Of a stretch of DNA of 32,000 bases, positions 2,497-31,427 are shown piece after piece (within the stretch, counting starts at the first letter, position 1; each line of letters begins with the position of its first letter). The stretch is from Candidatus Saccharimonadota bacterium (GTDB lineage: Bacteria; Patescibacteriota; Saccharimonadia; Saccharimonadales; Saccharimonadaceae). A program made the position numbers and the translations under genes. The notes below the pieces were generated by a model. The model saw only the letters and a list, made by a program, of their open reading frames with translations. It searched no databases and was not told where the DNA came from. The stretch spans positions 420,001-452,000 of the forward strand of contig CP064995.1 in the NCBI GenBank assembly GCA_016700015.1. The letters run 5' to 3'.

Positions 2497-2572
2497 AGGG
2501 GTGTAGCTCAATTGGTAGAGTAGCGGTCTCCAAAACCGTTGGTCGTAGGTTCGAGTCCTATCACCCCTGCCA
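2497..2572 (+). tRNA. tRNA-Trp (anticodon CCA), CCA end encoded
   Basis: Hand-folded 76-nt cloverleaf. Acceptor AGGGGTG/CACCCCT, D stem GCTC/GAGT, anticodon loop CTCCAAA, T arm GTAGG-TTCGAGT-CCTAT. An extended -10 (TGgTATAAT) lies at 2476-2484. Confidence 0.9.
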
Positions 2573-2609
2573 CGAAATAAGCCAGGCATTTGCTTGGCTT
2601 ATTTCGTGG
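2552..2609 (+). repeat. repeat copy 1: tRNA-Trp 3' 21 nt plus long hairpin
   Basis: CGAGTCCTATCACCCCTGCCA (2552-2572) is followed by an approximately 18-bp hairpin CCACGAAATAAGCCAGG/CTTGGCTTATTTCGTGG (2570-2609). Confidence 0.85.
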
Positions 2610-2740
2610 TCGAGATATTAGTCGAAGCTACGACCAACGAAGTTGGTTGGAGGTGAGAAATGCCAGTGGCATTTCGCAAGGACGTCAGCCGGAACAAGCT
2701 GTGCTTGTTACCGCGCTGCGTCGGGGTCGCGGAACGTGAC

Positions 2741-2794
2741 CGAGTCCTATCACCCCTGCCATAGAAATAACCGGCTTTGATGCCGGTTATTTCT
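2741..2794 (+). repeat. repeat copy 2: orphan tRNA-Trp 3' end plus homologous hairpin
   Basis: The identical 21-mer occurs at 2741-2761 with no upstream tRNA body. It is followed by a 13-bp hairpin AGAAATAACCGGC/GCCGGTTATTTCT (2763-2794). Confidence 0.85.
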
Positions 2795-2808
2795 TGTATT
2801 AAAGCCTA

Positions 2809-4398
2809 CTAGCGTATTGCACGGCGACTTGAAGCATAGTAAGTCGCTGCACCAATAATACTACTGAGGCCGACGCCCCCACCTAGCACGTCGGCAAGGC
2901 CGGTATGAGGAAGCTCGACAGGCTCGTCTGCCTTGGGGTTCGGTGTAGACGCTTCACACTTGCTCATATCTGTCGTGTGTTTGGTTTCATCGTAGTGATT
3001 CTTTGGCAGTGTTTTCTTTTCTTTGGTCGCAATGACACACACGTAGATATCCCCACACTTGGTGATATCGGTTGTCATATGACTTTCGTCATAGTCGCTG
3101 CGGTCAATAGTGATGATTTTGTTCGTGCTAGTGTCACAAACCGTGATGTTTTCTTTCGTGGTTGTAGTGGCGTCGTCACAATCATCTGGGCTGCCGGGTA
3201 CAGTTGGCGTATCGACACACACGGTATTTTTGTGGGTGCCACTAGCATACTTCGCATACTTTGCGGTAAGAATGAACGACATACTTTCGCCAACTTTTAG
3301 TTCAGTAATGGTGTAGGTCCAGTTATTGTCCTTTACCATACCTTCACTGGAACTTAGTAGCGTCACTTCTTTTGGCGCTTTGTCGGTGACAACAGAATTC
3401 TTTAGCGCGACATTACCGGTGTTGGTAACTTTAATCTCGTACGTGAAAGTTTCGCCTACTTTTACCACTGCTGTTTTGCTGCCATTGACAGTCTTTTCGA
3501 TACTAATTTTGGGCTTGTCTTCGGTACAAAGCGGACTGTCTTTTGGTAAGTTTTCTTTGCCTGGTACAGCACAGGGTTCGACGGTGACAGTGACAAACTT
3601 GGCACACGCATCGCTCGAAACATTGCCGAGACTCGTCAGTGCGATCGCCTGAAGTTTGTAGGTACCTGGCGTCGACAGAGTCATCGTAACCGTACTTGTC
3701 GATTGGCCAGTGGCACCCGGAACACCAGCGATGGTGTTGCCCGCCGGACCGTAGGCATAGTAGTGAATCGCGCTGATCGTGGCACCACCACTTGCAGAAG
3801 CGCTGCCGGTAAGGCGGAAGGTCGTACGGTTAATTGTGTCAACCGTCAGACTATTACACGTTGCGACTGGGACTTCAACCGGTGTCGCTACTAGCGCGTT
3901 ACCACAAGAGTACATAACAGCAGCAACAAATTTACCATTGGCATCGAACCATATATGAACGGCAATCGCATCAACACCTGCGGCGTAGTTGGTACCGGTG
4001 TAGCGCTCGTAGTAGGTATGACCATTGATATTGACCGCCCAACTACCACTACTGTATTGACGACCAACACTAATCGCTTTGCGTGCAACGACCTTGCCGC
4101 CATAATATACATCACCCGCCTTGGTGACGTATCCTTGCTTTTGTGTGCGACCATTGATCATACCTGCGCTAATGCCGTAGTGGTTATATAGAGCGGGCAG
4201 GTCACCAGTCTTGTTGGCTGCATATTTTGCAGCTAACTCATCTGAGGTAATAGCACCACAGTAAATAATCGAGTTATTATCACAGTCGCGGGCAGAAGGG
4301 TTGAGGGCATTTATTGAGTCGCCCGCAATCAGCGCATAGCCCGTAAATGACACAACTGCCGCTACTACACCTACTAGCAATGATTTTAGTTTGTTCAT
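2809..4398 (-). CDS. LPXTG-anchored cell-surface protein with DUF11/CARDB-like Ig-fold region
   Basis: N-terminal signal/TM (MNKLKSLLVGVVAAVVSF). The C-terminus has LPHTG, a hydrophobic stretch and RRAIR, which is a sortase signal. The block KVGETFTYEIKVTNTGNVALKNSVVTDKAP is DUF11-like. RBS GAGGAGG. Confidence 0.8.
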   Translation of the reverse strand: MNKLKSLLVGVVAAVVSFTGYALIAGDSINALNPSARDCDNNSIIYCGAITSDELAAKYAANKTGDLPALYNHYGISAGMINGRTQKQGYVTKAGDVYYGGKVVARKAISVGRQYSSGSWAVNINGHTYYERYTGTNYAAGVDAIAVHIWFDANGKFVAAVMYSCGNALVATPVEVPVATCNSLTVDTINRTTFRLTGSASASGGATISAIHYYAYGPAGNTIAGVPGATGQSTSTVTMTLSTPGTYKLQAIALTSLGNVSSDACAKFVTVTVEPCAVPGKENLPKDSPLCTEDKPKISIEKTVNGSKTAVVKVGETFTYEIKVTNTGNVALKNSVVTDKAPKEVTLLSSSEGMVKDNNWTYTITELKVGESMSFILTAKYAKYASGTHKNTVCVDTPTVPGSPDDCDDATTTTKENITVCDTSTNKIITIDRSDYDESHMTTDITKCGDIYVCVIATKEKKTLPKNHYDETKHTTDMSKCEASTPNPKADEPVELPHTGLADVLGGGVGLSSIIGAATYYASSRRAIR

Positions 4399-4576
4399 GG
4401 GGCACCTCCTCGCGCAAAAAACAGGTTATTCTCTTTTGTTTATACCAATGTATTTACAATTTGTCAATAAGCTATAATAATATATAACTCTTATGCTTAC
4501 ATGGTTAGCCTTATAGGAATGATGTAATTTACGCCTTTACGACCAAAAACAACTAAGAAATTGCTATACTTAGGGT

Positions 4577-5149
4577 ATGCAATCGTTACGACTGGCGCGT
4601 CCGCACGCGATTATGATGGTAGGTATCCCAGGCTGCGGTAAAAGCTTCTTTGCTAGCAAATTTGCCAACATGTTCCACGCGCCCTATGTAGATAGCCTCG
4701 CACTCGAGGCATTGGCGAAAGATAGCGAGGCAGCGGGCAAGCTTATTTCGCTTGTCATGGGAGAGTTATCAAAAACGGGACAAACATTTATATTTGAAGG
4801 AAACAGCGATAGTCGAGTACGCCGAACAGAATTTGCCAAATGGGCCAGGTCAAAGGGTTTTCAGCCACTTCTTGTATGGGTACAGACCGACAAAGTGACT
4901 TCTCTGAACCGCACACTAAAAAATGGTATGCTTGACCGTGATGAATTTGCCGACTATGTACGTGATTTTAGCCCGCCACACCCCGACGAAAAGCCACTTG
5001 TTATCAGCGGCAAACACACCTTCAACAGCCAGCTCAAGGTAGTGTTGGCGCAGCTTAGCCGTGAGAATCGCCCAGAGGCTACTCAACCAGTAGTACTAGC
5101 CGCTGCTGTGCCTCCAAGATCCACGACACGTCCAAGTATCGTGAGATAA
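4577..5149 (+). CDS. P-loop ATPase/kinase (AAA_33 / zeta-toxin-like fold)
   Basis: Walker A GIPGCGKSF near the N-terminus; 190 aa. TGcTATACT lies 6 nt upstream of the ATG with no SD. Confidence 0.6.
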   Translation: MQSLRLARPHAIMMVGIPGCGKSFFASKFANMFHAPYVDSLALEALAKDSEAAGKLISLVMGELSKTGQTFIFEGNSDSRVRRTEFAKWARSKGFQPLLVWVQTDKVTSLNRTLKNGMLDRDEFADYVRDFSPPHPDEKPLVISGKHTFNSQLKVVLAQLSRENRPEATQPVVLAAAVPPRSTTRPSIVR

Positions 5150-5152
5150 TGT

Positions 5153-5851
5153 ATGGCAAGTTTTGTCGACGCAGAATTTGGTGAAATCACTATTCGACGC
5201 GTGGCCCATGCTCGATATGTGCGCATAAAGGTACGTACTGATGGTCGGTTTGAAGCAACCGCACCACTACTAACTCCGACGCTTTTCATCAAAAAGATGG
5301 TAACTGATTCCCGCGCCAAGCTGCGCAACCTCGCAGCGCATACTAGTATTATGCACCCCTACGTCGATGGCCAGCAGATAGGAAAGGAGCATGCTATCGC
5401 CGTTATCCCCACAACTATGGTTACCAGTGCGCAGGTAAGTACTCTAAGGAACCGGATCATCGTCAAACTACCCCCAAACTCCACGCTTGCTGACAAATCG
5501 ATCCAGCAGTCCCTTCGAGTCGCCGTGGCCAAAATCTTACGCAAAGAAGCACGCGAGTATTTACCAAGTAGACTGTCGGCGCTTGCGAGTACTCACGGCT
5601 TTCGCTACGCAAGACTTCGCTTTAGTCATAGTGGCGGTCGCTGGGGTAGCTGCACTAGTCAGGGCACCATTAGCCTCAACATCGCGCTCATGAAGCTACC
5701 CGACACACTGATTGACTATGTTCTCATCCACGAACTTTGTCACACCAGACACATGAACCATAGCCCCGCCTTCTGGCAAGCTGTTGAAACAATCGACCCG
5801 CTCTACAAAACCCATCGTAAGCTCCTCAAAAAACACACACCGATTATATAG
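5153..5851 (+). CDS. DUF45/YgjP-family zinc metallohydrolase
   Basis: C-terminal HELCHTRHMNHSPAFW (HExxH) in the typical YgjP context; 232 aa. Sits 3 nt after the preceding stop. Confidence 0.75.
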   Translation: MASFVDAEFGEITIRRVAHARYVRIKVRTDGRFEATAPLLTPTLFIKKMVTDSRAKLRNLAAHTSIMHPYVDGQQIGKEHAIAVIPTTMVTSAQVSTLRNRIIVKLPPNSTLADKSIQQSLRVAVAKILRKEAREYLPSRLSALASTHGFRYARLRFSHSGGRWGSCTSQGTISLNIALMKLPDTLIDYVLIHELCHTRHMNHSPAFWQAVETIDPLYKTHRKLLKKHTPII

Positions 5852-5890
5852 TCTTGTGGCAATAGCCATATGCGGTATAATATAGCTATT

Positions 5891-7507
5891 ATGAAAAAAC
5901 GGGCGGGGCTCAATGTCAATCAGCGGACTGCGGCGATCGTTCGTCTAGCGGGACTTGTCTTGCCGGTTATGTTGCTGCTGTATGGGCTTCTTATCCAGAC
6001 AGGGGTGATTGTTTCGCCACACTACGCCGGCGACTGGGTATTTCTTGCTATCGCCATATCCTGGCTAGGCTTGAGTATATTTCAGTTTCTAGTGCTACCT
6101 AAATCTAGGCGTATGTCTGCCATCAGATTAATCCTCTTCCACATTCTTGCCGCACTCTATTTATTGTTTGTATCGGGATTCAATATGCCGTTTACCGTCG
6201 GGTGGATTGTACTGCTACTAGCCTCATTTGCCTACTTTTCGTCTGATGGTCTGTATCTTAGTGTATTTGGGCTATTTGCGACCGCTCTCGCCGACATACT
6301 GCTCCATATTGACAACCCAGACTATATTATCCAAAACATACTCTACTTTGTCGGCACACTCGCAGTAGGTCATATCGCGGGCTCGATTAGTAAGGCGCAA
6401 GAAATCGACCGCGAAGAACTAACCCGCAGCCAGGCGGAGGAGCTGCTACAGCGTGATCGTATGATCACTATTGTCAATAACCTCGCCGACGCGATACTCA
6501 GCACCGATAAAAATGGCGTGATACAGGTCTACAACGCAGCATGCCTAAACCTCATTGATACCAACACCAGCCTCGAGGGACAGAAGATCGACGCTATTTT
6601 GCCGCTTATCGACAAAGACAATGCGCCGTTCAAGTTTACCCGTGAGCTGAAAGCCGCTTCGACAGTGCAAAATAGAGATGACTTGAGTCTCAAGATCGCG
6701 GGCGAGCTTATACACCTCAGTGTCATCTACTCACCAATTCGTGGCGTCGATAGTCATGGTTCTGACGGTTCTGACGGCTACATTGTTATTCTACGCGACA
6801 TCACCAAGCAAAAATCACTTGAAGAAGAGCGCGACGAGTTCATTAGCGTCGTCAGTCATGAGCTGCGCACACCAATTACCATTGCCGAGGGCACACTGAG
6901 CAACCTGCAGATTATGATGGATCGGAGCGATATCCCCACGACTACGCTCCAAGACAATGTGAAAGTTGCACATGACCAAGTACTGTTTCTTGCCAAAATG
7001 GTGAACGACCTGAGTACACTAAGCCGTGCCGAGCGTGGTGTCGCCGATGCCCCAGAGGCTATCGATGTGAGCGCACTCATCCACGACCTCTACAACGAGT
7101 ATGCGCCGCAAGCCGAGGCCAAGGGATTACACTTCAACCTAGACCTTTCGCCACAGCTTGGCGAAGTAGTAGCGAGCCGCCTATATTTAAAAGAGCTGCT
7201 ACAAAACTTTGTCACCAACGCAATTAAATATACCAAAGAGGGTGAGGTGGTTGTCAGAGTGAAAAAGCACGATGACACGCTTGACTTCAGAGTATCTGAT
7301 ACCGGAATCGGCATGAGCAAGAGTGACCAAGCACATGTGTTCGAAAAGTTTTGGCGTAGCGAAGATTACCGCACCCGGGAGACGGGTGGTACGGGTCTCG
7401 GCTTGTATGTTGCAAGAAAGCTTGCAAAGAAACTCGGTGTTACTATTGAAATGACCTCTCGACTCAACCACGGGTCGACGTTTGGGTTTAGTATGTCACG
7501 TCGCTAG
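5891..7507 (+). CDS. membrane sensor histidine kinase with PAS domain (no adjacent response regulator)
   Basis: N-terminal hydrophobic helices, a PAS-like block (ILSTDKNGVIQVYNAACLNL), H-box SHELRTPIT, N-box NAIKYT, G-boxes DTGIGM and GGTGLGL. The start was moved to ATG 5891 because TATAAT (5876-5881) lies downstream of the track start. Confidence 0.8.
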   Translation: MKKRAGLNVNQRTAAIVRLAGLVLPVMLLLYGLLIQTGVIVSPHYAGDWVFLAIAISWLGLSIFQFLVLPKSRRMSAIRLILFHILAALYLLFVSGFNMPFTVGWIVLLLASFAYFSSDGLYLSVFGLFATALADILLHIDNPDYIIQNILYFVGTLAVGHIAGSISKAQEIDREELTRSQAEELLQRDRMITIVNNLADAILSTDKNGVIQVYNAACLNLIDTNTSLEGQKIDAILPLIDKDNAPFKFTRELKAASTVQNRDDLSLKIAGELIHLSVIYSPIRGVDSHGSDGSDGYIVILRDITKQKSLEEERDEFISVVSHELRTPITIAEGTLSNLQIMMDRSDIPTTTLQDNVKVAHDQVLFLAKMVNDLSTLSRAERGVADAPEAIDVSALIHDLYNEYAPQAEAKGLHFNLDLSPQLGEVVASRLYLKELLQNFVTNAIKYTKEGEVVVRVKKHDDTLDFRVSDTGIGMSKSDQAHVFEKFWRSEDYRTRETGGTGLGLYVARKLAKKLGVTIEMTSRLNHGSTFGFSMSRR

Positions 7508-7519
7508 GACGATGACCGT

Positions 7520-8305
7520 TTACTTTATCTCAATGGCCTCAAGGTACTGGGCTACAAGGGTCTGAGTGATACGCATATACCGTTCGATACCTGTGGCATC
7601 TTCTGTGTAGAGTGGTCGATAATGTACTCGATCACGATGATACACGTCACGGCGCCGGTCTGCTGGATCTGGTATATACGTGCCGCTCTCATCGTATAAT
7701 GAACGAGTCCCATTGATCTCTCGATAGGTAACACCGCCATTTGGCAACCTCTCTCTTTCATCCTCAGACCATTCCGCAGAATAAATGTCTGGCTCCGAAG
7801 CAAAAAACTGCGGCTCATGGGGGTCGCCATGAGCAAGCGTTTCGTAAAGGTATCCGTCAGTAGGGAGCAATACGTGCAGCATACTGTCGTGTGGCCTACC
7901 GTACGCATCAAGCTGCTTCGGCTGGGTAAATCGACAGCCGAGAAACATCCCAAAATCAGAGCCAGCTTGTGATGCAGAAAAACGATATGGTACTTCTTCG
8001 CCATCCCTATTGATCACTATGCTCTCCCGAGTTACATCACACCCCGCCTGCTCATAAAGAACGCGTACGGCCTCTTCAAGCCCAAGCATTGCCAGCGCGA
8101 GACGGCGATTTGGCGTATCTCTTGTCTCTATCGCTGTCTGCCACACATTGCATTTCTCGAGCATTACTCGCTCCTCGTCTGTCAACGGATGCTGGAGGAG
8201 TTCATCAGTCTCAAGGCTCAAAAATGCGCGTAACCGAGCAATCGCCCTTTCGCGCTGCTCAAAATCAATTCCATTTGCTAGTGTCTCGTGGGTATTCTTT
8301 GTCAT
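7520..8305 (-). CDS. hypothetical protein (about 261 aa)
   Basis: Long ORF with no motif I recognise. The start is placed at ATG 8305 (MTKNTHETL), behind TTGCAT-18-TACACT and 6 nt. Confidence 0.55.
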   Translation of the reverse strand: MTKNTHETLANGIDFEQRERAIARLRAFLSLETDELLQHPLTDEERVMLEKCNVWQTAIETRDTPNRRLALAMLGLEEAVRVLYEQAGCDVTRESIVINRDGEEVPYRFSASQAGSDFGMFLGCRFTQPKQLDAYGRPHDSMLHVLLPTDGYLYETLAHGDPHEPQFFASEPDIYSAEWSEDERERLPNGGVTYREINGTRSLYDESGTYIPDPADRRRDVYHRDRVHYRPLYTEDATGIERYMRITQTLVAQYLEAIEIK

Positions 8306-8364
8306 ACGGCTAGTGTACCCGACAAAACTCAGGACATGCAACCATGAGAACTATCTGTTTATTA

Positions 8365-8393
8365 TTGACAAAGCTCTCGAGGTGACATATACT
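8365..8393 (+). promoter_or_regulatory. secE-nusG promoter
   Basis: TTGACA (8365-8370), 17-nt spacer, TATACT (8388-8393). A 7-bp hairpin AGTCTGC/GCAGACT follows in the leader. Confidence 0.6.
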
Positions 8394-8443
8394 ACTCTTG
8401 ACAGTCTGCAACAAGCAGACTTATTAAATTGGGAGAAGTGCCC

Positions 8444-8809
8444 GTGGCAAAAGCTAACAACACAAAAGACACTACCAAGATCACTCGCATCTCTGCAAAT
8501 GACTCCGGTTCGAAGTCAAAAAAAACCGTCAAAGCGCCAAAATCCAAGCCAGACTCTAAGCACAAGAGCGAGCAGGCAACAGGCAGAAGGCCTGTTTTGA
8601 CACAGCTGCCCGTGAAAAATCCGCTCAGCCCAATTACTCGCTATGTTAAAGGAGCGTGGTACGAGCTTCGTCAAGTCCGCTGGCCGGACAGGCGTAGTAC
8701 CTGGGGTATGACCGGCGCGCTGATCGCCTTTACCGTATTCTTCTTGGTCGTTATCATACTGCTTGACGCAGGGTTCCAACAATTATTTAAGCTAATCATA
8801 GGGAAGTAA
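8444..8809 (+). CDS. secE: preprotein translocase subunit SecE with Lys/Ser-rich N-terminal extension
   Basis: C-terminal block YVKGAWYELRQVRWPDRRSTWGMTGALIAFTVFFLVVIILLD is the SecE signature plus TM. GTG 8444 is preferred over TTG 8429 because of the GGGAGAAG RBS. The exact start is uncertain. Confidence 0.85.
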   Translation: MAKANNTKDTTKITRISANDSGSKSKKTVKAPKSKPDSKHKSEQATGRRPVLTQLPVKNPLSPITRYVKGAWYELRQVRWPDRRSTWGMTGALIAFTVFFLVVIILLDAGFQQLFKLIIGK

Positions 8810-8815
8810 CCATAC

Positions 8816-9364
8816 ATGGCACAGAAAAATCGTTACGACAGTACCCGTCAGTGGTACGCAATCCACACTTACAGCGGCTACGAAGAAAAAGTTGCCGATA
8901 GTATAAAAACTCGCATTCAGGCAGTTGATATGGCCGACAAGATCTTTGACGCCATGGTGCCAAAGGAAAAGCAAATACAGATCAAAAACGGCAAGCGCAA
9001 GGTTGTCGAAGCAAAGATTTTCCAAGGCTATGTTCTGGTAGAAATGAAGCTTACGGACGAAACATGGTATATTGTACGAAACACCCCAGGCGTCACCGGT
9101 TTTGTGGGTAGTGGCACCGAGCCAACACCTGTGAGCGATGGTGAGATCGCCAAAATCAAGAAACGTATGGGCGTCGAAGACCCCAAGCATCAGATTGATT
9201 TCCAGCCAGGAGAAGTTGTCAATATCACCGACGGTCCATTCAAGGGCTTTGATGGCGCGGTGAGCGAAATTGATACCGCCAAGGGCAAGCTAAAGGTGAT
9301 GGTCAGCATGTTTGGCCGTGATACCCCTGTTGAGCTCGACGCGTTGCAGGTCAAAAAAGTATAG
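8816..9364 (+). CDS. nusG: transcription termination/antitermination factor NusG
   Basis: NGN domain (WYAIHTYSGYEEKV) and KOW motif (GEVVNITDGPFKGFDGAVSEID); 182 aa. Confidence 0.95.
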   Translation: MAQKNRYDSTRQWYAIHTYSGYEEKVADSIKTRIQAVDMADKIFDAMVPKEKQIQIKNGKRKVVEAKIFQGYVLVEMKLTDETWYIVRNTPGVTGFVGSGTEPTPVSDGEIAKIKKRMGVEDPKHQIDFQPGEVVNITDGPFKGFDGAVSEIDTAKGKLKVMVSMFGRDTPVELDALQVKKV

Positions 9365-9380
9365 TCCAGTGTTTTTCACA

Positions 9381-9409
9381 AGCCGCCACCTACTGTGTGG
9401 CGGCTTTTT
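9381..9409 (+). terminator. intrinsic terminator after nusG
   Basis: AGCCGCCAC/GTGGCGGCT stem followed by TTTTT. Confidence 0.8.
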
Positions 9410-9443: not shown

Positions 9444-9481
9444 ATATTTTGTTCTATCCCGCACTAGCGAAAGGGAACACC

Positions 9482-10081
9482 ATGGCACCTGCCACGAACC
9501 CAAACAGCATCCGAGTTGAGATGCTGAGGGCTGGTATCGCCGAGGCGCAACGCCTGCGCGATAAAGCGCTCAGCGACAACCGAACCTGGCTGTTCTTCAA
9601 TCGGCGCGCGCAAGAGATGCAAGCCGAGCTGGATGTGCTTGAAACGCCCAAGACGGCGCAGCCATCCTTGGAGGAGCTGCTCACTGCGCTATATGGCTCT
9701 ACCGTTCCTCTTGCCGAACCCACCGACTGGGACGAGACATTCGAGCGGCTGTATGGCAGCGCCAGCGCCGCTTTTGAGCGCTTTCTCGACACGGCTGGTA
9801 AGCGCATGATGGAATTGACAGAGCAGCTTAACAGCCTTGGTGAAGTTGCCGCCGACAAGGCGACCGATGCCGCCGGGGCCGCACAGGAAGTGTTCGGTGA
9901 CGACATCGACGACCTGGCAAAGGCTCTCGAACAACTGCAGGCCACGGCCACCAGCCAGGCCGAGCGAGCGCTCGATGGTGCCTTGGCCCGCTTGGCAGGT
10001 ATCGCCAGTGGTCTGGCCGAGACGCGCGAGGCCTATCGTCAGCGCCGGGCTGAGCGCCAAGCTGGCAACCCCACGTCCTGA
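9482..10081 (+). CDS. hypothetical acidic, Ala/Glu/Leu-rich helical protein (199 aa)
   Basis: ATG 9482 lies behind RBS GAAAGGGA. Third codon positions are G/C-biased in this frame. There is no TM segment and no known motif. The overlapping ORFs in other frames are GC artefacts. Confidence 0.6.
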   Translation: MAPATNPNSIRVEMLRAGIAEAQRLRDKALSDNRTWLFFNRRAQEMQAELDVLETPKTAQPSLEELLTALYGSTVPLAEPTDWDETFERLYGSASAAFERFLDTAGKRMMELTEQLNSLGEVAADKATDAAGAAQEVFGDDIDDLAKALEQLQATATSQAERALDGALARLAGIASGLAETREAYRQRRAERQAGNPTS

Positions 10082-10089
10082 GCCAACAT

Positions 10090-10130: not shown

Positions 10131-10137
10131 CATTATC

Positions 10138-10170: not shown

Positions 10171-10194
10171 CACAGGAACGAGTCCCAACACTAC

Positions 10195-15100: not shown

Positions 15101-15108
15101 CATTTTGC

Positions 15109-24332: not shown

Positions 24333-24421
24333 TATAATTTCATTATACCATATAATATAATCTATGTCAATATATTTATGGTAAATTATATTCACTGCTG
24401 TCTATTTGCTATCATAAGCGT

Positions 24422-24877
24422 ATGAGGAAACCACGGTTAAGCACCGGCCCAATCGTTCGCACCAGGGAAATGGAGCGCAAATATAAGAATCATCGCAAGC
24501 TACTGGAAAAAAGTAATTGCGATTTTTGCGATTTCACACCTGTTTCCAAACAGGTACGGCGTGAGTTCGCACACTTCTGGCTCGTCGATAATATTTTTCC
24601 CTACGCACTATGGGATGGCTGTAGGGTACTCGAACATTTATTGCTTGTGCCGAAACGTCATGTTATCTCACTAAGCGAACTAACCGCTATCGAAAGCGCC
24701 GAGTATGTGCAAATTATCAGCAACCTAGAAGATAGTGGCTACGCAGTCTATGCTCGACCCGCAGTATCGTCGGCAAAATCCGTGCCGCATCAGCACACGC
24801 ACTTCATACACATTGACAACATTAAGATTAAGACCCTTTACTATAACTATTCTCCCCACATGTTGTACTTTACATAA
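24422..24877 (+). CDS. HIT-family (histidine triad) nucleotide hydrolase/transferase
   Basis: C-terminal VPHQHTHFIH (HxHxHxx triad); 151 aa. Confidence 0.7.
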   Translation: MRKPRLSTGPIVRTREMERKYKNHRKLLEKSNCDFCDFTPVSKQVRREFAHFWLVDNIFPYALWDGCRVLEHLLLVPKRHVISLSELTAIESAEYVQIISNLEDSGYAVYARPAVSSAKSVPHQHTHFIHIDNIKIKTLYYNYSPHMLYFT

Positions 24878-24943
24878 CTTTACTAGTCATACGTGTTGAT
24901 TTGCCTCATACTAATTGGCATACGAAAGCAAGGAGGACCACGT

Positions 24944-25909
24944 ATGACGAAGCATTCCTATGAGACACAGTATCTTGATTTACTACGCAACATTCGCGAC
25001 AATGGCGATGACACAACCGACCGTACCGGCGTGGGCACGCGCGGTATTATGGGGGCACAAATGCGCTATGATCTGCGCGATGGATTTCCATTACTACAAA
25101 CGAAGCGAGTGCCACTTGGCGTAGTGGCAACAGAACTGTGCTGGATGCTGCAGGGACGAAGAGATTTGCGCTACCTCGTGGAGCGCAACTGTAACATTTG
25201 GAACGAATGGCCCTATGTCAACTATATGCGCGCTACCAGTCAAGCCCTGCCACCCCAAGACTCAGATGAGTGGAAGGGCAGCATGGCCGACTACATTGAG
25301 CGCGTCAAAACAGATGACGAGTTTTCTGAAGAATTCGGCGATCTTGGTCCGGTCTATGGCTACCAGTGGCGCCACTGGCCAGATGGATCGTTCAATGGTA
25401 TCGATCAGCTCGGCAGTGTGCAGGAGCAAATAAAACGAGGTTCTGATTCGCGTCGGCTCATCGTATCGGCTTGGAACCCTGCCGATATTGAAGAAATGGC
25501 AGTAGCCGGGCTGCCCCCGTGCCATATGATGTACCAGTTTAAGCGCTGGCCCGATGGCTCACTCGACATGGGGCTCTACCAGCGCAGCGCCGACATGTTC
25601 CTGGGTGTGCCGTTCAATATGGCGCAGTACGCGCTACTGCTCACCATGATGGCCGAAGTAACCGGCACCACACCGCGCTATTTTACGCATAGCTTTGGTG
25701 ACGCGCATATTTATACCAATCACTTTGATCAAGTTGAAGAACAGTTGTCGCGTGAGCCGCTACTCGCAACTCGTTTATTAAGTGGGGCACCGCGCATTGA
25801 ACTTAGCCCCTACGCCGACGCAAAAGATGTCGCTGATTTCGAGCCTTCAGACGTGACGGTGGATAAGTATTTTCCAATGAAGGCGATAAAGGCTCCTGTA
25901 GCGATATAG
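24944..25909 (+). CDS. thyA: thymidylate synthase ThyA (long form with insert)
   Basis: Blocks DRTGVGT, YGYQWRHW, PPCH, DAHIYTNH and C-terminal IKAPVAI. ATG 24944 lies behind AGGAGG. Confidence 0.95.
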   Translation: MTKHSYETQYLDLLRNIRDNGDDTTDRTGVGTRGIMGAQMRYDLRDGFPLLQTKRVPLGVVATELCWMLQGRRDLRYLVERNCNIWNEWPYVNYMRATSQALPPQDSDEWKGSMADYIERVKTDDEFSEEFGDLGPVYGYQWRHWPDGSFNGIDQLGSVQEQIKRGSDSRRLIVSAWNPADIEEMAVAGLPPCHMMYQFKRWPDGSLDMGLYQRSADMFLGVPFNMAQYALLLTMMAEVTGTTPRYFTHSFGDAHIYTNHFDQVEEQLSREPLLATRLLSGAPRIELSPYADAKDVADFEPSDVTVDKYFPMKAIKAPVAI

Positions 25910-26426
25910 TCGCTGGAGCAATCCGCTGATAGGTGACAAAATCCATAGGGTAGGCATTCAGCCCACGGCGAACAGGAAAGTACTCACGCTCGGTTTCGGC
26001 CCATTCGTCTGCTGGCAGCGCGGGGAAATGGGCATCACAATCTGGGAAATCCGCCGCGATCTCTGTCGCGTACAAGGTGTCGGTAAAGGGAAGCGCCGCG
26101 ATATACATCATTTGTCCGCCAATCACGATTGCCCGACGCTGCTGGTGCTCGGCGAGTTCGTAGGCCTGGCTGGGTGTTTCTACTACCGTCACACTCGGGC
26201 TATGCGAGAGGCGACGAGAACTAACAACAATATTTGTGCGCACATTGCTCGTGAGCGGAGCATCGAGTGATTCAAACGTTTTGCGCCCCATGATCAACGC
26301 CTTGCCAGACGTGAGGTTACGAAATCGCCGCATATCGGCAGACATTGTGCCATACGGCCACGGCAGGTGGTTGTGGCTACCAATTTCTCTACTACACCCA
26401 TAGGCAACAATCATTTCGTGTGTCAT
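25803..26426 (-). CDS. folA: dihydrofolate reductase with about 37-aa C-terminal tail
   Basis: EMIVAYGCSREIGSHNHLPW...FRNLTSGKALIMGRKTFESL is the DHFR signature. The start is uncertain (26426, 26414 or 26441). The 3' end overlaps thyA. Confidence 0.85.
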   Translation of the reverse strand: MTHEMIVAYGCSREIGSHNHLPWPYGTMSADMRRFRNLTSGKALIMGRKTFESLDAPLTSNVRTNIVVSSRRLSHSPSVTVVETPSQAYELAEHQQRRAIVIGGQMMYIAALPFTDTLYATEIAADFPDCDAHFPALPADEWAETEREYFPVRRGLNAYPMDFVTYQRIAPATISLQEPLSPSLENTYPPSRLKARNQRHLLRRRRG

Positions 26427-26494
26427 AGCGTATGCTATCATACTACCATCTTGAAAAATATGACAGATTACTGATGTAAAATTGTACGCCACGC

Positions 26495-26570
26495 TTGCGG
26501 TATAGCAAAACCATGAGTAGAATTAAACTAAGTGGGCGGCCTGGTAGCAGGGCCGCTTTTTGGAGGGAAT
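26495..26570 (+). promoter_or_regulatory. dcd promoter plus leader hairpin and T tract
   Basis: TTGCGG (26495-26500), 17-nt spacer, TAGAAT (26518-26523). Then GCGGCC-TGGTAGCAG-GGCCGC followed by TTTTT (about 26535-26561), immediately before RBS GGAGGG. Confidence 0.45.
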
Positions 26571-27341
26571 ATGCCACAGGTGAGGATAGAACAGGGCAGA
26601 GTAGTGCCGCAGGGAGGGGTATTTAGCGACCTTGAAATTCAAGCCGGGCTTGAAGTCGGGCATATTATTTGCGAGCCAGCACCCAGTGCTATTAATGGAT
26701 CAAGTATCGATGTTAGCCTGGGCTATTACTTCTACCATGCCAAGGGAAACGAGGGTGGCGACAACTTGTTTAACCCGTTTGACGAAGCGGATGTGCGACG
26801 CTACTATGGCGACTACTACGAAGCGAAGCCGTGGGCAGCTGTACGACGAAAAATCGGCAATAGCAGTGTAGCTTCAATCGAGCACCTAGCCAACATTCCC
26901 GATGATCACCCAGTTATTGTGCTTCGGCCCAACGAACGAATCCTCGCTCATACGCACGAATTTATTGGCATATTGCCGCCAGGCACCACAAGCATGCAAG
27001 CCCGTAGCACTACAGGACGCATAGGAGTCAGCGCCTGCTACTGTGCTGGCTGGGGGGACCCTGGCTATGTGAACCGCTGGACGATGGAAGTCCATAACCT
27101 TAACGAAAACGAGCATGTGGTACTACCTGTAGGCTACAAACTCGCGCAAATCGTGTTTAGTAGCACCGGCCCTGTCGGTACTGAATATGCTCTAGCTAGT
27201 GGCAATTATCAAGACATCCCGAGTATCGATCTCGCTGCCATTAAAGCCGCGTGGCATCCCTCACAAATGCTGCCAAAAGCATATAAGTCAGGATTTATAT
27301 TACCAACGCCAGCGAAAGGACTGTCTAATGGCTTCAAGTAA
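26571..27341 (+). CDS. dcd: dCTP deaminase family protein (long form)
   Basis: INGSSIDVSLG, ARSTTGRIG and DPGYVNRWTMEVHN align by eye to the E. coli Dcd blocks INGATVDVRLG, GRSSLARLG and DPGWSGCIVLEFYN. Confidence 0.85.
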   Translation: MPQVRIEQGRVVPQGGVFSDLEIQAGLEVGHIICEPAPSAINGSSIDVSLGYYFYHAKGNEGGDNLFNPFDEADVRRYYGDYYEAKPWAAVRRKIGNSSVASIEHLANIPDDHPVIVLRPNERILAHTHEFIGILPPGTTSMQARSTTGRIGVSACYCAGWGDPGYVNRWTMEVHNLNENEHVVLPVGYKLAQIVFSSTGPVGTEYALASGNYQDIPSIDLAAIKAAWHPSQMLPKAYKSGFILPTPAKGLSNGFK

Positions 27342-28014
27342 TAAAGAATTCGGTAAATATTTTGTCATTGAAGGCAACGACGGCACTGGCAAATCAACCC
27401 AAGCTGAGCTGCTCGGCCAGTACCTGCAGAACCAACTCGGCATCGAAACCTTCGTGACGCATGAACCGGGCGGCGTGCCGATTGCCGATGCACTGCGCGA
27501 AATAATCAAAAATGGCGAACTGGAGCGCGATGCCGATACCAACATCCTCATGTTTACCGCCGCACGGCACGAGATTTGGAAACGTGCTCGCCAATCTCTT
27601 CAACTCGGGCACTATGTTATCAGTGCGCGAAATTATTATTCGACTATCGCCTACCAAGCAATTGCTGAACGAACAGGTAGTTTCTTGCAAGCTATGGAAA
27701 AAGCCGACGAAATCGTGGCTCTCACACGTCAATATACCGATGATCTCTATATGACACCAGATGGACTCGTCGTCCTCCAGATGCCGACGTTCACAAGGCG
27801 CCTGAATATTGGCAGCCGCGGCAGAGTAGACACGCCCGACACGTTTGAGTCACGTGGTGACGAATTTCAACACCGAGTCGACGATGGGTATGATTATGTT
27901 GCCGAGAAATTCAACGCTGTCCGAATCGACACAGTAGGTAGAGACAATCGTCAAAAAACAATCGAAGAAGTGCATATCGAGATACGCAAAGCATTTGGCT
28001 TTGACGCGAAATAG
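27328..28014 (+). CDS. tmk: thymidylate kinase
   Basis: KYFVIEGNDGTGKSTQAELL P-loop. ATG 27328 lies behind GAAAGGA and overlaps the dcd end by 14 nt. Confidence 0.9.
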   Translation: MASSNKEFGKYFVIEGNDGTGKSTQAELLGQYLQNQLGIETFVTHEPGGVPIADALREIIKNGELERDADTNILMFTAARHEIWKRARQSLQLGHYVISARNYYSTIAYQAIAERTGSFLQAMEKADEIVALTRQYTDDLYMTPDGLVVLQMPTFTRRLNIGSRGRVDTPDTFESRGDEFQHRVDDGYDYVAEKFNAVRIDTVGRDNRQKTIEEVHIEIRKAFGFDAK

Positions 28015-28016: not shown

Positions 28017-29069
28017 TTAGTGTTTTTCTAGGCCAGCGATAAGAGATGCGTAGACCGTATCGCGAGCATCTTTATCGGGGATTTTAAGCAGTACTTTGGC
28101 ATTTTCTTGCCCTATGAGCGCTACGTCGTAGTCGGCGAGAGCGGCGGCGACCGCCTTTGCGCCAACAATTGGGTGGAAATCGGCCGAACGCTCGTGGTAA
28201 TTCAACCGATCTTTGTAATCATAGCTGCGCAAATAATAGCTAACGCTCAGCGGCTGCGCATTGATGAAGAGCTCTTCGCCACTAGGGAGCGTAACAAGCT
28301 GAAGGTTCGACTGCACGTCAACGAGTTCAACATCATCTGCGAGCAATACCACCGTAGCCTTACGTATAAGTTCGAACCTATTACCAGGAGTATTAACCTC
28401 AGCTGCGACACGTTTTTGTACTAAAACACCCGTGTCATCTAAGAACTGCCAGCTGCCAAAATCGCCGCCTTCGGGGTTTCGCCAGCCTATGACAGCCCGA
28501 CCAGCCTTCTGGAGATCCATTAGCTGCTGCTGCACCTGTGTGTCGAGCTCGGCAAGTTGCGCCTGGCTGAATGGCAGTGTTAATTTATGAGTTTCAACAC
28601 TTGTCATTTCAGGGTACTCAGCTATCAGCGCTACAAGTTCAGCAAACGATGCCACACCAGCGCGTGCATCTTGGATAGTCTCTAGCATAGCAGCTGATGG
28701 CCTACGGGCGTGAACTGCTGCATATAGCCGTTCGTAACCAACACTATTATGGCTGCACCGAATGGTAATTTGTTTTTCGATTTCATCAACAATTTTCGTA
28801 AAGTAAGGTTCTGGCACACCCGCTGCCTGACACATGCTAAGTACCCGCGCCCTAAGGCTAATCTTTGCTGCTTCAGTATAAAGCGCACCCCCAGCTAGCT
28901 TGACAGCGTATGGGTCGAGTGGCGTCGGCAAATAATTAACAGCATCGTCGTTAGTATCTGGCATATCCCACGCTAGCGTGACCGGCTGATTAAGTACGTC
29001 GATATCGCTACTAGGCGCCTGGGCTGCTTCGGTGTATTCACAGCCCAACATTTTTATTACTCTTTTCAT
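28017..29069 (-). CDS. hypothetical protein (350 aa)
   Basis: Long ORF with no known motif. TGcTATAAT lies 10 nt upstream of ATG 29069. An alternative start is at 29051. Confidence 0.55.
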   Translation of the reverse strand: MKRVIKMLGCEYTEAAQAPSSDIDVLNQPVTLAWDMPDTNDDAVNYLPTPLDPYAVKLAGGALYTEAAKISLRARVLSMCQAAGVPEPYFTKIVDEIEKQITIRCSHNSVGYERLYAAVHARRPSAAMLETIQDARAGVASFAELVALIAEYPEMTSVETHKLTLPFSQAQLAELDTQVQQQLMDLQKAGRAVIGWRNPEGGDFGSWQFLDDTGVLVQKRVAAEVNTPGNRFELIRKATVVLLADDVELVDVQSNLQLVTLPSGEELFINAQPLSVSYYLRSYDYKDRLNYHERSADFHPIVGAKAVAAALADYDVALIGQENAKVLLKIPDKDARDTVYASLIAGLEKH

Positions 29070-29124: not shown

Positions 29125-29328
29125 TTGAAAATAATGAGGCTAGCTGCTATACTCCATTGTAGACATTACCAAAGACAGTAGCGGGCCAGTGTGCCGATAA
29201 GAATGCTACCGAGGGAATTACACTTTTTCCATGGTCTTTGGTGAGCGCCAAAGATTTTTTGTTGCTCACCATATGTCGAAACTTAACAATGTGGTCGAAT
29301 ACCAAATCAAAGTAAAGGAACTCTATCT
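29125..29328 (+). promoter_or_regulatory. rplJ promoter and L10-leader-like attenuator
   Basis: TTGAAA (29125-29130), 17-nt spacer, TATACT (29148-29153). ACCAAAGAC (29168-29176) can pair with GTCTTTGGT (29234-29242). Alternatively, TCTTTGG (29235-29241) pairs with CCAAAGA (29248-29254), followed by TTTTTT (29255-29260). Confidence 0.65.
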
Positions 29329-29853
29329 ATGGCTATTAGCAAAGATAAGAAACAAGCTTTGGTCGGTGAACTAAGCGAGCTATTCGCAAACGCAAAAGGC
29401 ACGGCTGTTGCAAAGTACCAGGGTATCAGCGTCGCTGATCTGCAGGCACTGCGCAAAAGCGCCCGCGAGGCTGGTGTGACAATTAAAGTTGTCAAGAACC
29501 GCCTAGTGCGCGTTGCAATGGGCGACAATGCTACCTACAAAGGCGCATCTACCGATGCACTTGTGGGTCAGCTGCTCTACGCATTTAGCGATAGCGATGA
29601 AGTCATGCCAGCAAAGGTGCTGAACGACTTTGCCAAAACCCATCCCGAGCTCAGTCTTGTGGCGGGCTTCAGTGGCGAAGGCGTCACGCAGTCTGCTGCC
29701 GATGTCACCGCGCTTGCTGGCTTGCCAAGCAAGAACCAGCTTATCGCCGAAGTGGTGGCGCAATTGCTTTCACCAGTTCACGATGTCACCAATGCACTCT
29801 CTGGCAACCTCCATGCGTTGCTCGACGGTGTCGAAGCCAAAGCTGCAGCGTAA
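29329..29853 (+). CDS. rplJ: 50S ribosomal protein L10
   Basis: 174 aa. The sequence KQALVGELSELFANAKGTAVAKYQGISVADLQALRKSAREAGVTIKVVKN is L10-typical. Confidence 0.95.
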   Translation: MAISKDKKQALVGELSELFANAKGTAVAKYQGISVADLQALRKSAREAGVTIKVVKNRLVRVAMGDNATYKGASTDALVGQLLYAFSDSDEVMPAKVLNDFAKTHPELSLVAGFSGEGVTQSAADVTALAGLPSKNQLIAEVVAQLLSPVHDVTNALSGNLHALLDGVEAKAAA

Positions 29854-29956: not shown

Positions 29957-30337
29957 ATGGCAGACGTAAAGAAACTTGCAGAAGAGCTTACAAAGCTTAC
30001 TGTACTTGAAGTAAACGAACTAAAGAACGTCCTCAAAGACGAATACGGCATTGAGCCAGCTGCTGCTGCAGTTGCTGTTGCTGCCGGCCCAGCTGCTGAC
30101 GCTGGCGCTGCAGCTGCAGACGAAAAAACTGAATTCACCGTCAACCTGAAAGACGGTGGGGCACAAAAAGTTGCCGTCATCAAAGCAGTTAAAGAAATCA
30201 CCGGCCTTGGCCTTGGTGAGGCAAAAGCACTAGTCGACAACGTACCAAGTGTTATTCTTGAAAAAGCCAGCAAAGACGACGCCGAAAACGCCAAGAAGCT
30301 TCTTGAAGAAGCTGGCGCAGCTGTCGAGCTCGCGTAG
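29957..30337 (+). CDS. rplL: 50S ribosomal protein L7/L12
   Basis: 126 aa. Ala-rich hinge and C-terminal domain [24 protein letters not shown]. Confidence 0.95.
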
Positions 30338-30347
30338 TAAGTTATAC

Positions 30348-30362
30348 CACCCCCTAAAGCCG
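30348..30362 (+). repeat. 15-mer CACCCCCTAAAGCCG, copy 2 (after rplL)
   Basis: Exact 15-mer, followed by hairpin CGATGC-TAC-GCATCG, CGTTG and TACGGGGCG. Confidence 0.8.
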
Positions 30363-30476
30363 ATGCTACGCATCGTTGTACTTTACGGGGCGACCACATT
30401 TGTTGATGCAATAGCCACTCTGTAGTGATACGGGGTGGTTTTGTATTGTGGGGTAGTCTCAGGTAGGTCAAAATGC

Positions 30477-30505
30477 TTGACTTTTTATGATTGTCGTGCT
30501 ATAAT
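30477..30505 (+). promoter_or_regulatory. consensus promoter of the GC-rich cassette after rplL
   Basis: TTGACT (30477-30482), 17-nt spacer, TATAAT (30500-30505). Confidence 0.7.
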
Positions 30506-30544
30506 GGTATATAGTAAGCCATAATCCATCTAGTAAGGAGCACC

Positions 30545-31192
30545 GTGGCTCGTACCAGCACAGCCCGTCGTCCGCAGTCGCCGAAGAGCATCGCTGTCGT
30601 CCGCCATCGTGCGGCCGCCAACCGCGCCGCGTTCATGGCGAAGATCGTGGTGTTCGACGAGCACGGCAACCTTGTCGAAGACAGCTCACACCCGAAGGCG
30701 GGTGTGAAGTACGACAAGTGGCGCAAGCAGGGCCGGGCAGAGAAGCGCGCCCGGCGCCAGGACCAGATGGCCGTCTTCACCCTCGCTGAGGGCGTGGCGG
30801 ACACGGTCGACTGGCGCCCGCCGCGGGCGTATCGCAACTCGCTCACTTCCCGTGAGCGGTTCCGCATCGCCAAGTGGGAGCGCGAAGCGCGCCGCCGCGA
30901 GGCAGAGTGGTGTCGGCAGGACGCCGAGATGCTCGCCGCCATGGACAAGGCGATGGCCTTTGTCGAAGACAAGGAGCCCATCGCCCCAGTCGCCCCCGAG
31001 CGCAACTTCGGCCTGGCAATGCGCCAGCGAGCCGAGCACGAACGGCATGCATGGACACCCCGGCCCGACAGGCCGCGAGTCGTGCTGCCGCCGCACCTGC
31101 GGGTGCCGGAGGACGAAGAGCGCCGCGTCACCGGCTACCGCGGTGGGCGAACTCGCCACCAGCAGGCTCGGCTCACCTCGGGCGCCTTCTAG
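30545..31192 (+). CDS. very GC-rich, Arg-rich hypothetical protein (215 aa)
   Basis: GTG 30545 lies behind TAAGGAG. Third positions are almost all G/C in this frame only. A hand-counted 60-nt sample is about 68 % GC. The four overlapping ORFs in other frames are GC artefacts. Confidence 0.6.
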   Translation: MARTSTARRPQSPKSIAVVRHRAAANRAAFMAKIVVFDEHGNLVEDSSHPKAGVKYDKWRKQGRAEKRARRQDQMAVFTLAEGVADTVDWRPPRAYRNSLTSRERFRIAKWEREARRREAEWCRQDAEMLAAMDKAMAFVEDKEPIAPVAPERNFGLAMRQRAEHERHAWTPRPDRPRVVLPPHLRVPEDEERRVTGYRGGRTRHQQARLTSGAF

Positions 31193-31201
31193 GCGCCACT
31201 A

Positions 31202-31250
31202 CGGCCCGACCGTTCCTTTCCCTACAGGGATTGGAGCGGCCGGGTCGTTT
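31202..31250 (+). terminator. hairpin terminator
   Basis: CGGCCCGACCGTTCC pairs with GGAGCGGCCGGGTCG (15 positions, with two GU pairs and one mismatch), followed by TTT. Confidence 0.5.
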
Positions 31251-31427
31251 CATTTGTGGCATAGCAAACTTACACAGAACATGGTCTAGCCACATATAAA
31301 AATTACAACGACTTTTATTTTACCTCATATTACCGTGTGGAAAATTTCGGGGTTGACACCACGCCTCGCACGCGGTATATAATGAGGGTATTACTACACA
31401 AAACAGACAAGGATTGCGAGAACTAAT

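Follow-up and report, generated by a model that had tools for sequence, protein, structure and literature searches.

How does a block of ribosomal protein genes come to be kept in order yet pulled apart at its joints? The question is raised by a stretch of 32,000 nucleotides (the window, by which we mean the whole stretch that was analysed; GC 52%) from a bacterium of the Saccharimonas type, within the Saccharibacteria (TM7). It holds tRNA-Trp, secE, nusG, rplK, rplA, rplJ and rplL, all on the + strand and in the canonical order: the first-pass annotation had said so, and Pfam, ARAGORN, Rfam and the coordinates bear it out. The gaps, when recomputed, are also those that it had reported: 5871 bp from tRNA-Trp to secE (with its start at 8444), 5836 bp from nusG to rplK, 5098 bp from rplK to rplA, 7599 bp from rplA to rplJ and 1090 bp after rplL; in all, some 25 kb of other genes separates the members of the cluster. 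Window genes were taken from a six-frame listing of open reading frames (ORFs) and from Pfam and NCBIfam scans, tRNAs from ARAGORN and Rfam. Five of the six protein-coding cluster genes are confirmed by Pfam (SecE, NusG, L11, L1, L10); rplL is identified by its translation, by tblastn matches in relatives and by the Ribosomal_L12 Pfam domain of the orthologues 3' of rplJ in two of them (L091, L095). The answer that we favor, and consider probable, is that the array is made of four self-contained units, each with its own predicted control signals, and that the gaps between units are permissive for the accumulation of genes.

Not every gap in this array is a broken operon. The nusG/rplK and rplA/rplJ junctions are boundaries of transcription units in model bacteria too. 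The E. coli genes are divided into separate units, secE-nusG, rplKA and rplJL-rpoBC; L1 binds to the rplK leader and so represses rplK-rplA, the translation of rplA being coupled to that of rplK (Fu et al. 2013, PMC3616713). Because these units are already separate, only the rplK/rplA split qualifies as a true operon break: instead of being adjacent, the two genes are held apart in the window by a gap with eight ORFs and one tRNA. Nor do rpoB and rpoC directly follow rplL, where the hypothetical genes hyp30545 and hyp31428 are found instead. In proteobacteria, rplKAJL-rpoBC is reported to be the most conserved gene block, its splits falling mostly between rplKA and rplJL (PMC4481853).

Is the dispersal an oddity of one genome? 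The window was compared, by tblastn of all its proteins, with its best 80 L11 relatives among species-representative genomes (82-92% L11 identity; nearly all labelled Saccharibacteria, Saccharimonas, Saccharimonadales or Nanosynbacter), each taken as a 20-kb locus reaching 10 kb to either side of the anchor genes. Ten same-species contigs from independent metagenomes (L11 identical, DNA 93-100% identical to the window), the sister species L091, the loci L095 and L096, and the closed genome of Candidatus Saccharimonas aalborgensis were also compared; the window L1 is 81% identical to the L1 of the latter, and in an L1 protein search all relatives listed are at least 73% identical. The general order across the 80 loci is AAA33-YgjP-HK-secE-nusG-rplK...rplA...rplJ-rplL-hyp31428 (HK is a histidine kinase), with tRNA-Trp just 5' of AAA33 in most relatives, on either strand. 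That order is kept, and the rplK/rplA and rplA/rplJ junctions are mostly interrupted, in the 80 relatives, in S. aalborgensis and in the ten same-species contigs.

With a junction called occupied when its gap exceeds 400 bp, secE/nusG (2-135 bp in 72 loci), rplJ/rplL (26-225 bp in 26 loci) and AAA33/YgjP (3-149 bp) are never occupied. The nusG/rplK gap runs from 38 to 8725 bp (median 160) and is occupied in 30 of 76 loci; rplK/rplA runs from 245 to 6840 bp (median about 2.6 kb) and is occupied in 43 of 49, and in nine further loci rplA is not within the 10 kb examined 3' of rplK; rplA/rplJ runs from 277 to 7404 bp (7599 in the window, median 3.4-4.1 kb) and is occupied in 30 of 31. Values of about 250-330 bp for rplK/rplA represent true adjacency, since the tblastn match skips an N-terminal extension of L1. 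It follows from these figures that the rplK/rplA and rplA/rplJ splits are the rule in this lineage. The split array, which the closed S. aalborgensis genome also has, is the standard layout of the lineage and not a peculiarity of the window genome. The source being a metagenome-assembled genome of heterogeneous GC content (0.43-0.65 per kb), one might suspect a chimeric contig, the product of faulty assembly or binning. The layout recurs, however, in ten independent assemblies with identical L11, from different samples and at 96-100% identity, and in the complete S. aalborgensis genome, and the sister species shares the backbone; the layout is accordingly not an assembly artefact, chimeric assembly is refuted, and the chance that an error of this kind explains the array is negligible.

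What, then, would make a dispersed array workable? The predicted control signals suggest an answer. Separate promoters for the ribosomal protein genes had been proposed by the first-pass annotation, and rplK, rplA and rplJ each do have a promoter-like site of their own (coordinates of all features are collected in the table below). Between positions 8000 and 22500, 28 promoter-like sites were observed against 10.5 expected from shuffles, and a site upstream of rplK matching at least 10 of 12 consensus positions, at a distance of 57-148 nt (mostly 65-110), is found in 65% of 78 relatives, as compared with 5.6% of random 150-nt windows. The flanking terminators claimed for most of the genes were likewise found: hairpins followed by U lie 3' of nusG, of rplK with its abutting 72-codon ORF, of rplA and of rplL, with folding z-scores of -3.8 to -5.6. 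An L10 leader that scores above its Rfam gathering threshold precedes rplJ by 60 nt, and the leader region is conserved in 28 relatives.

The rplA gene has, in addition, a 65-nt leader that resembles an L1-binding site. Its pattern is AAUCAAUG-NN-GGGAGGC-(variable hairpin)-GCCG-N7-ACC.CAGAAAGG-N-AUG, in which GGGAG is invariant and the outer helix forms by pairing with AGGAU in the ribosome-binding region. From 17 sequences a covariance model was built, which matches the window at 20644-20733 with 82.7 bits. Each of the 51 rplA-bearing loci has exactly one copy, whose end falls at the start codon of rplA; there is none in 13 loci without rplA and none elsewhere in the loci. Of the 12 base pairs, which form 3 helices, 8 have compensatory changes, and 95% of cells are paired; none of 500 shuffles reaches the observed values, and slid alignments are 36-56% paired. 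An L1 site upstream of rplK was considered as well and discarded: the leader model has no match there in any locus. The leader is also found in loci that have rplK and rplA still adjacent (L033, L054, L080). The autonomy of rplA is therefore not a result of the insertions, and it may have preceded them. The N-terminal extension of L1 (20725-21060) is about 110 amino acids (aa) long and rich in Lys, Glu and Ala, with residue 137 as the start of the Pfam L1 domain; most of the 120 closest L1 relatives listed have lengths of 323-354 aa, the longest 389 aa.

These elements can be assembled into the following proposal. The units would be secE-nusG; rplK with its small ORF; rplA, with its own promoter and L1-site-like leader; and rplJ-rplL, with its L10 leader. 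Each would have a promoter-like site in front of it and an intrinsic-terminator hairpin behind. Since every unit would carry its autoregulation in cis, DNA placed between units would not uncouple their expression, so that the gaps would be permissive and genes would accumulate in them; gene order would be kept because the units themselves are neither inverted nor translocated. The independence of the units is the likely reason that insertions are tolerated, a role that we infer, as we do the functions of the promoters, terminators and leaders; the anatomy of the array, its conservation, the turnover of its filling and the covariation of the leader are observed directly.

Several points weigh against this proposal. 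Promoters and terminators were recognised solely by their match to consensus, and read-through may occur. The single-sequence fold of the rplA leader is no more stable than those of shuffles (z -0.86), its support being comparative only. The comparisons are confined to Saccharimonadia-type relatives, among which a few loci (L071, L074, L077) are nearly compact, and either the compact or the dispersed state may be the ancestral one. Finally, the gaps may vary no more than other inter-operon gaps in these genomes, the counts having been made at this locus alone. The last point leads to a competing explanation, to which we give a substantial chance, though short of an even one: that the backbone is conserved genome-wide while single genes come and go at essentially every boundary between transcription units, the array having been noticed because its anchors are easily recognised. 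McLean et al. 2020 (PMC7427843) report very high synteny among G1 Saccharibacteria with individual gene loss and gain genome-wide. Variation is seen, too, at HK/secE (5 states), at GT4/AAA33 and inside the block of genes for deoxythymidine monophosphate (dTMP) synthesis, and the IS30 insertion sequence (IS) of the window occurs in many unrelated contexts. Against uniform flux of this kind stands the unevenness of the variation: 28 distinct architectures in 44 loci at rplK/rplA, far above the 5 in 62 at HK/secE.

At the other two large junctions there are 25 architectures in 76 loci (nusG/rplK) and 20 in 29 (rplA/rplJ). A crude greedy call of ORFs of at least 70 codons gives 43, 58 and 61 families at nusG/rplK, rplK/rplA and rplA/rplJ, with 36, 38 and 35 singletons; because of the nature of the call, these counts are upper bounds. 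Pairs of loci with at least 98% NusG plus L11 identity have the same architecture in 95% of cases at nusG/rplK, 70% at rplK/rplA and 45% at rplA/rplJ. Below 95% identity, sharing falls to 1-6% at rplK/rplA and rplA/rplJ, and what is shared at nusG/rplK at this distance is for the most part the common empty state. Four junctions show recent insertions or indels: the IS30 element and the segments that hold hyp7520, hyp13680 and hyp30545.

Could all of this be the residue of an ancient arrangement, each insertion ancestral and single, with differential loss creating the present variation? Most of the 80 relatives do have the AAA33-YgjP-HK and thyA-folA-dcd-tmk blocks in common, the genes between rplK and rplA run in one order throughout the species and in its sister, and the oral and gut clades are without the dTMP genes, which is consistent with loss. 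Such a history does not readily account for the singleton families at the three junctions, for architectures that are almost never shared below 95% identity, for an IS30 that is present or absent among near-identical strains, or for hyp13680 and hyp30545, of deviant composition and absent in close relatives. As a complete explanation it is largely refuted, and we consider it unlikely. The filling is of mixed age, part ancient and part turning over quickly between species, and most of the hypothetical genes are exchanged between genera.

The first-pass view of the locus as a "serial insertion hotspot" thus needs to be divided. Strong variation among relatives at nusG/rplK, rplK/rplA and rplA/rplJ, and recent events at four junctions, are in its favor, as are the internal junctions that stay empty and the promoter-like site of each ribosomal protein gene; the split itself is lineage-standard. 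The AAA33-YgjP-HK and thyA-folA-dcd-tmk blocks, old and common to many relatives, fit for part of the content the ancient fixed arrangement that the annotation had named as the alternative to a hotspot; the remaining content turns over. Synteny differs greatly among relatives at the three junctions; between the window, the rest of its species and the sister species, the rplK-rplA filling is nonetheless colinear.

Table. Features of the window, in order of position (hyp, hypothetical gene; TG, the dinucleotide noted at the rplJ site)
Feature	Position	Strand	Evidence or remark
GH57 fragment	6-1064	-	Pfam/NCBIfam scan
GT4 glycosyltransferase	between GH57 fragment and tRNA-Trp	-	Pfam/NCBIfam scan
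tRNA-Trp (CCA), array head	2497-2572	+	ARAGORN; Rfam tRNA 70.4 bits
DUF11 surface protein	2809-4398	-	Pfam; C-terminal LPHTG motif by eye
AAA33 kinase-like, YgjP-like metallopeptidase, PAS histidine kinase	4577-7507	+	Pfam
907-bp segment with hyp7520 (273-aa ORF 7520-8341)	7491-8397	-	blastn
secE-nusG unit	8444-9364	+	Pfam; promoter-like site 8365-8393 (11/12)
secE ORF	8429-8809	+	Pfam SecE; gene callers start at 8444
nusG	8816-9364	+	Pfam NusG
Terminator hairpin after nusG	9380-9406
nusG/rplK filling: hyp9449 (+), ABC exporter (-), hyp12502 (+), hyp13680 (+)	9449-15035		ORF calls, Pfam
1.6-kb GC-rich segment with hyp13680 (ORF 13680-15035)	13526-15124	+	blastn, GC
rplK promoter-like site TTGATT-17-TATAAT	15109-15137	+	consensus match (10/12)
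rplK (L11)	15201-15626	+	Pfam
72-codon ORF abutting rplK	15626-15844	+	gene calls
Terminator hairpin after rplK and 72-codon ORF	15864-15895		fold -19.3 kcal/mol, z -3.8
rplK/rplA filling: hyp15918, tRNA-Pro(CGG), hyp16555, VanY carboxypeptidase, hyp18185 (-), hyp18810, orf96, hyp19706	15918-20578
tRNA-Pro(CGG)	16408-16485		ARAGORN, Rfam
rplA promoter-like site TAGACA-17-TATAAT	20625-20653	+	11/12; TATAAT conserved in aligned relatives
rplA leader, L1-binding-site-like stem-bulge-stem	20660-20724	+	65 nt
rplA (L1), 334 aa	20725-21729	+	Pfam
Terminator hairpin after rplA, bidirectional	21787-21810
Small secreted protein, weak peptidoglycan-binding motif	21837-22316	-	Pfam
IS30-family insertion sequence, 1062 bp	22327-23388	+	transposase 22378-23367
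hyp23451 (-), HIT-like protein (+)	23451-24877		GC 0.45
dTMP block: thyA (+), folA (-), dcd (+), tmk (+)	24893-28014		Pfam
hyp28017, divergent gene between tmk and rplJ	28017-29069	-	47% identical counterpart in L091
rplJ promoter-like site	29125-29153	+	10/12, with TG
L10 leader (Rfam RF00557)	29151-29269	+	49.3 bits vs gathering score 44
rplJ (L10)	29329-29853	+	Pfam
rplL	29957-30337	+	translation, tblastn, orthologue Pfam
Terminator hairpin after rplL	30413-30440
~0.85-kb GC-rich segment with hyp30545 (ORF 30545-31192)	30449-31301	+	own promoter-like site 30477-30505 (11/12)
hyp31428, 171 aa	31428-31943	+	3' of rplL, where rpoBC expected

The filling ahead of secE is a mixture of the old and the recent. 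The AAA33-YgjP-HK block is old and lineage-wide, being found before secE in the same order and with tight spacing in 56-57 loci. The DUF11 surface protein is a clade-specific filling of tRNA-Trp/AAA33, with homologues at the same place in L003, L004, L022 and L032. The hyp7520 segment is polymorphic within the species: blastn finds it in the same-species contigs L082 and L084, and 108 bp in its place in L081; scans of Pfam, NCBIfam, PADLOC and PHROGs gave no family match for hyp7520. Further upstream in a number of relatives (L001, L029, L034-L036, L042-L046, L049, L053, L068, L069) there are other pieces of the canonical neighborhood: tRNA-Thr, tRNA-Tyr, tRNA-Thr and a 72-aa L33-like ORF, the last picked out by eye. 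They are parted from secE by GH57, GT4, tRNA-Trp and the AAA33-YgjP-HK block, so that the dispersal reaches beyond the array reported here.

At nusG/rplK, the ABC exporter gene recurs in L015, and together with hyp12502 in L091 and L095. The sister species L091 is without the hyp13680 segment and has 87 bp instead (blastn). The product of hyp13680 has a predicted signal peptide and membrane span, and is 81% identical between strains whose DNA there is 96-97% identical. The same-species contig L081, when aligned with the window (4394-26686), is 100% identical from rplK rightwards and 96-97% identical leftwards, with synonymous divergence (dS) in the left part of 0.03-0.42, highest in hyp9449 and hyp13680. 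This makes it a recombination mosaic at the level of strains, with its breakpoint near hyp13680/rplK.

The eight genes that fill rplK/rplA are colinear in every same-species contig, as they are in the sister species (dS about 1), and tRNA-Pro(CGG), VanY and hyp18810 follow rplK in the wider clade of the window. Other clades carry other housekeeping genes at this place: Sua5/YrdC with enolase, an FAD-linked oxidase, or (by reading of the sequence) a fused trehalose-phosphate synthase/phosphatase. Two details of this filling may be recorded. The small protein hyp18810 (18933-19172; 79 aa in gene calls) and its counterpart in the sister species are 97-98% identical, as against 76-83% for its neighbors; ten relatives also have it between rplK and rplA, and no family match was found for it. 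In the same-species contig L084 (99.8% identical), the T-arm of tRNA-Pro(CGG) contains about 60 additional nt (10634-10697), with a hairpin among them, at the place equivalent to about 16464 of the window; a small mobile insertion, a disrupted allele of the tRNA and an artefact of assembly are all conceivable.

The rplA/rplJ junction holds both old and recent filling. Of 41 informative relatives, 28 have one or more of the genes thyA, folA, dcd and tmk after rplA, thyA often at 60-130 bp from it, and the block is an old, widely shared filling of this junction. The HIT-like gene is common to L033, L075 and L095; the small peptidoglycan-binding-like protein was not found in the sister species L091. 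The recent member is the IS30 element, the only part of the first-pass statement that the inserts include "two tRNAs and an IS30" that holds without amendment: the whole window does contain two tRNAs (by ARAGORN and Rfam), one of which, tRNA-Trp, is the head of the array, and only tRNA-Pro(CGG) sits in a junction.

The transposase of this element matches NCBIfam NF033563 (2e-59; 201.5 bits vs a cut-off of 80), and the element is like the IS30 family in its single transposase, its length of about 1.06 kb, its terminal inverted repeats and its presence or absence among strains. By eye, the repeats have an 11-nt exact complementary core, AATCAGGACAC (about 22346-22356) and GTGTCCTGATT (about 23360-23370). 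The element is absent from the near-identical contigs L081 and L083; the empty site of L081 reads TTTA-TAA-CTAG and the window TTTA[IS]CTA-CTAG, strain differences blurring any 2-3 bp duplication. At 22316-22330, only about 12 bp separate the end of the element from the start codon of the minus-strand peptidoglycan-binding-like gene, which keeps its Shine-Dalgarno sequence and has lost its native upstream region. The element is mobile and present in multiple copies. A 99.6% identical IS30 is found in L096 (5260-6316), a strain that has the L1 of S. aalborgensis, one gene away from rplA on the upstream side; as the rplA DNA of L096 is only about 74% identical, recent transfer between species is implied. 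Beyond the element, L096 has truB-rpsO in place of the rplK side, a join that suggests either an IS-associated rearrangement or a chimeric assembly at low coverage. A preference of IS30 for the neighborhood of rplA was entertained and rejected as ascertainment bias: at least 19 short contigs carry the transposase, beside varied neighbors, and its position here is therefore not specific to the array. No match was found in a plasmid collection that would speak for a plasmid origin.

After rplL, the distance to the next gene is 250 bp in L095 and 250-382 bp in most relatives; the hyp30545 segment that widens it here has no counterpart in the blastn comparison of the window with L095. The gene hyp31428, at the usual position of rpoB, follows rplL in 18 relatives and not in the sister species L091. 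It is conserved like the ribosomal proteins: of the 18 loci in which it was found, 17 show 82-89% identity and L057 shows 76%. It has no sequence match in Pfam, NCBIfam or PDB.

By what route did the inserted DNA arrive? Site-specific integration at tRNA-Trp and tRNA-Pro is one conceivable means of delivery. The 21 nt at the 3' end of tRNA-Trp (2552-2572) have a perfect direct copy 189 bp downstream, at 2741-2761; the orientation of tRNA-Trp flips among relatives; and tRNA-Pro(CGG) directly follows rplK in the wider clade of the window, at the head of a variable region. Each copy of the 21-nt repeat is followed by its own terminator-like hairpin, and a degenerate inverted fragment of tRNA-Trp (2614-2646) lies between the two, so that the region looks like the scar of a past integration or inversion. 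The repeat brackets only 168 bp, however, and not the LPXTG gene. A repeat search of the window disposed of tRNA-Pro as an attachment site, its 3' end not being repeated; no tRNA lies in the nusG/rplK or rplA/rplJ junction; and no integrase or recombinase domain was found among the 31 ORFs scanned, the IS30 transposase being the only mobility gene. Delivery through tRNA sites is, in our estimate, improbable.

Composition singles out some of the inserts. The core genes have a GC content of 0.48-0.54 and a third-position GC content (GC3) of 0.41-0.57; the corresponding values are 0.70/0.84 for hyp30545, 0.65/0.78 for hyp13680, 0.62/0.69 for hyp9449 and 0.61/0.72 for hyp16555, with GC of about 0.45 for the peptidoglycan-binding-like gene, hyp23451 and HIT. 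Among 5.8 billion proteins, hyp13680 has one homologue and hyp30545 two, the latter being identical to an NCBI protein on a Saccharibacteria contig; these searches, which gave proteins of the same lineage only, yielded no donor for the two GC-rich ORFs, each of which has its own near-consensus promoter-like site, and they speak neither for nor against an origin in an actinobacterial host. For inserted genes with orthologues, the ratio of nonsynonymous to synonymous divergence (dN/dS) is 0.08-0.45 (0.32 for hyp13680, 0.23-0.45 for hyp9449), so that these are real genes under purifying selection. Defence-island or prophage content was sought by scanning ten junction ORFs against PADLOC and PHROGs and was discounted, the one weak match (LeoBC-like) being to a low-complexity stretch of hyp13680. 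A bolder suggestion, which we think doubtful, is that the flanks of autonomous, highly expressed ribosomal protein units may be preferred landing pads or "nurseries" for fast-evolving, lineage-specific genes; it is prompted by fillings that include genes without recognisable relatives, with GC3 of 0.78-0.84, promoters of their own and the dN/dS values just given, and by the predicted signal peptide and membrane span of hyp13680. If that were true, moving L1 autoregulation to rplA would have been the enabling step that opened the most conserved of bacterial operons.

What is to be learned from such a locus? It reveals no new mechanism. It presents a whole lineage of ultra-small epibiotic bacteria in which a gene block regarded as among the most conserved in bacteria has been kept in order yet pulled apart, with rplA apparently reduced to a self-regulated single-gene unit, and it thereby provides two natural tests: 1) of whether ribosomal protein operons are held together by cis regulation or by co-transcription; 2) of where compact, highly syntenic genomes still acquire genes. 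There are practical uses as well: the rplA leader model supplies a candidate L1-type regulatory RNA for a phylum that Rfam does not cover (the leader has no Rfam match), and variable junctions beside universal markers would be convenient sites for strain typing and gene capture in Saccharibacteria metagenomics.

Integration hotspots, as Oliveira and colleagues are said to have described them in 2017, are chromosomal intervals between core genes in which horizontally acquired genes are concentrated. The array is like them in its core-bounded intervals, in its many accessory families across genomes, in the deviant composition of some of these and in its IS; it is unlike them in that no integrases, prophages or defence genes were detected and that much of its content is old housekeeping genes (dTMP synthesis here, enolase and Sua5 elsewhere). 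With the genomes compared by McLean et al. 2020 (PMC7427843) it shares a conserved order in environmental and host-associated members and the gain and loss of individual genes; that study is genome-scale, and the part of it consulted does not describe a dispersed ribosomal protein cluster, an autonomous rplA unit or turnover at junctions. A full-text search of the literature found no paper on either a dispersed cluster or an autonomous rplA unit in this phylum.

L1-interacting RNAs directly before rplA have been described in Actinobacteria, Cyanobacteria and Chloroflexi, and in archaea with unlinked rplK, such as Methanococcus vannielii (Fu et al. 2013, PMC3616713). The rplA leader fits that published description of L1-binding sites: it has a short stem, an internal bulge with the invariant G/A (GGGAG) and a second stem, 5' of rplA and beside the ribosome-binding site. 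It differs in having a -10/-35 promoter of its own, rplA being predicted to be monocistronic and not co-transcribed with rplK, as in bacteria, or with rplJ-rplL, as in archaea. The cluster of E. coli and other model bacteria, for its part, has the same gene order and orientation, separate rplK and rplJ promoters, an L10 leader and a terminator after nusG; it does not have rplK and rplA non-adjacent and uncoupled, inserts of 5-7.6 kb at three junctions, or an rplL without rpoBC behind it. The cluster is thus a known one, the leader is of a known type and the gene flux is known; it is their combination that has not been described before.

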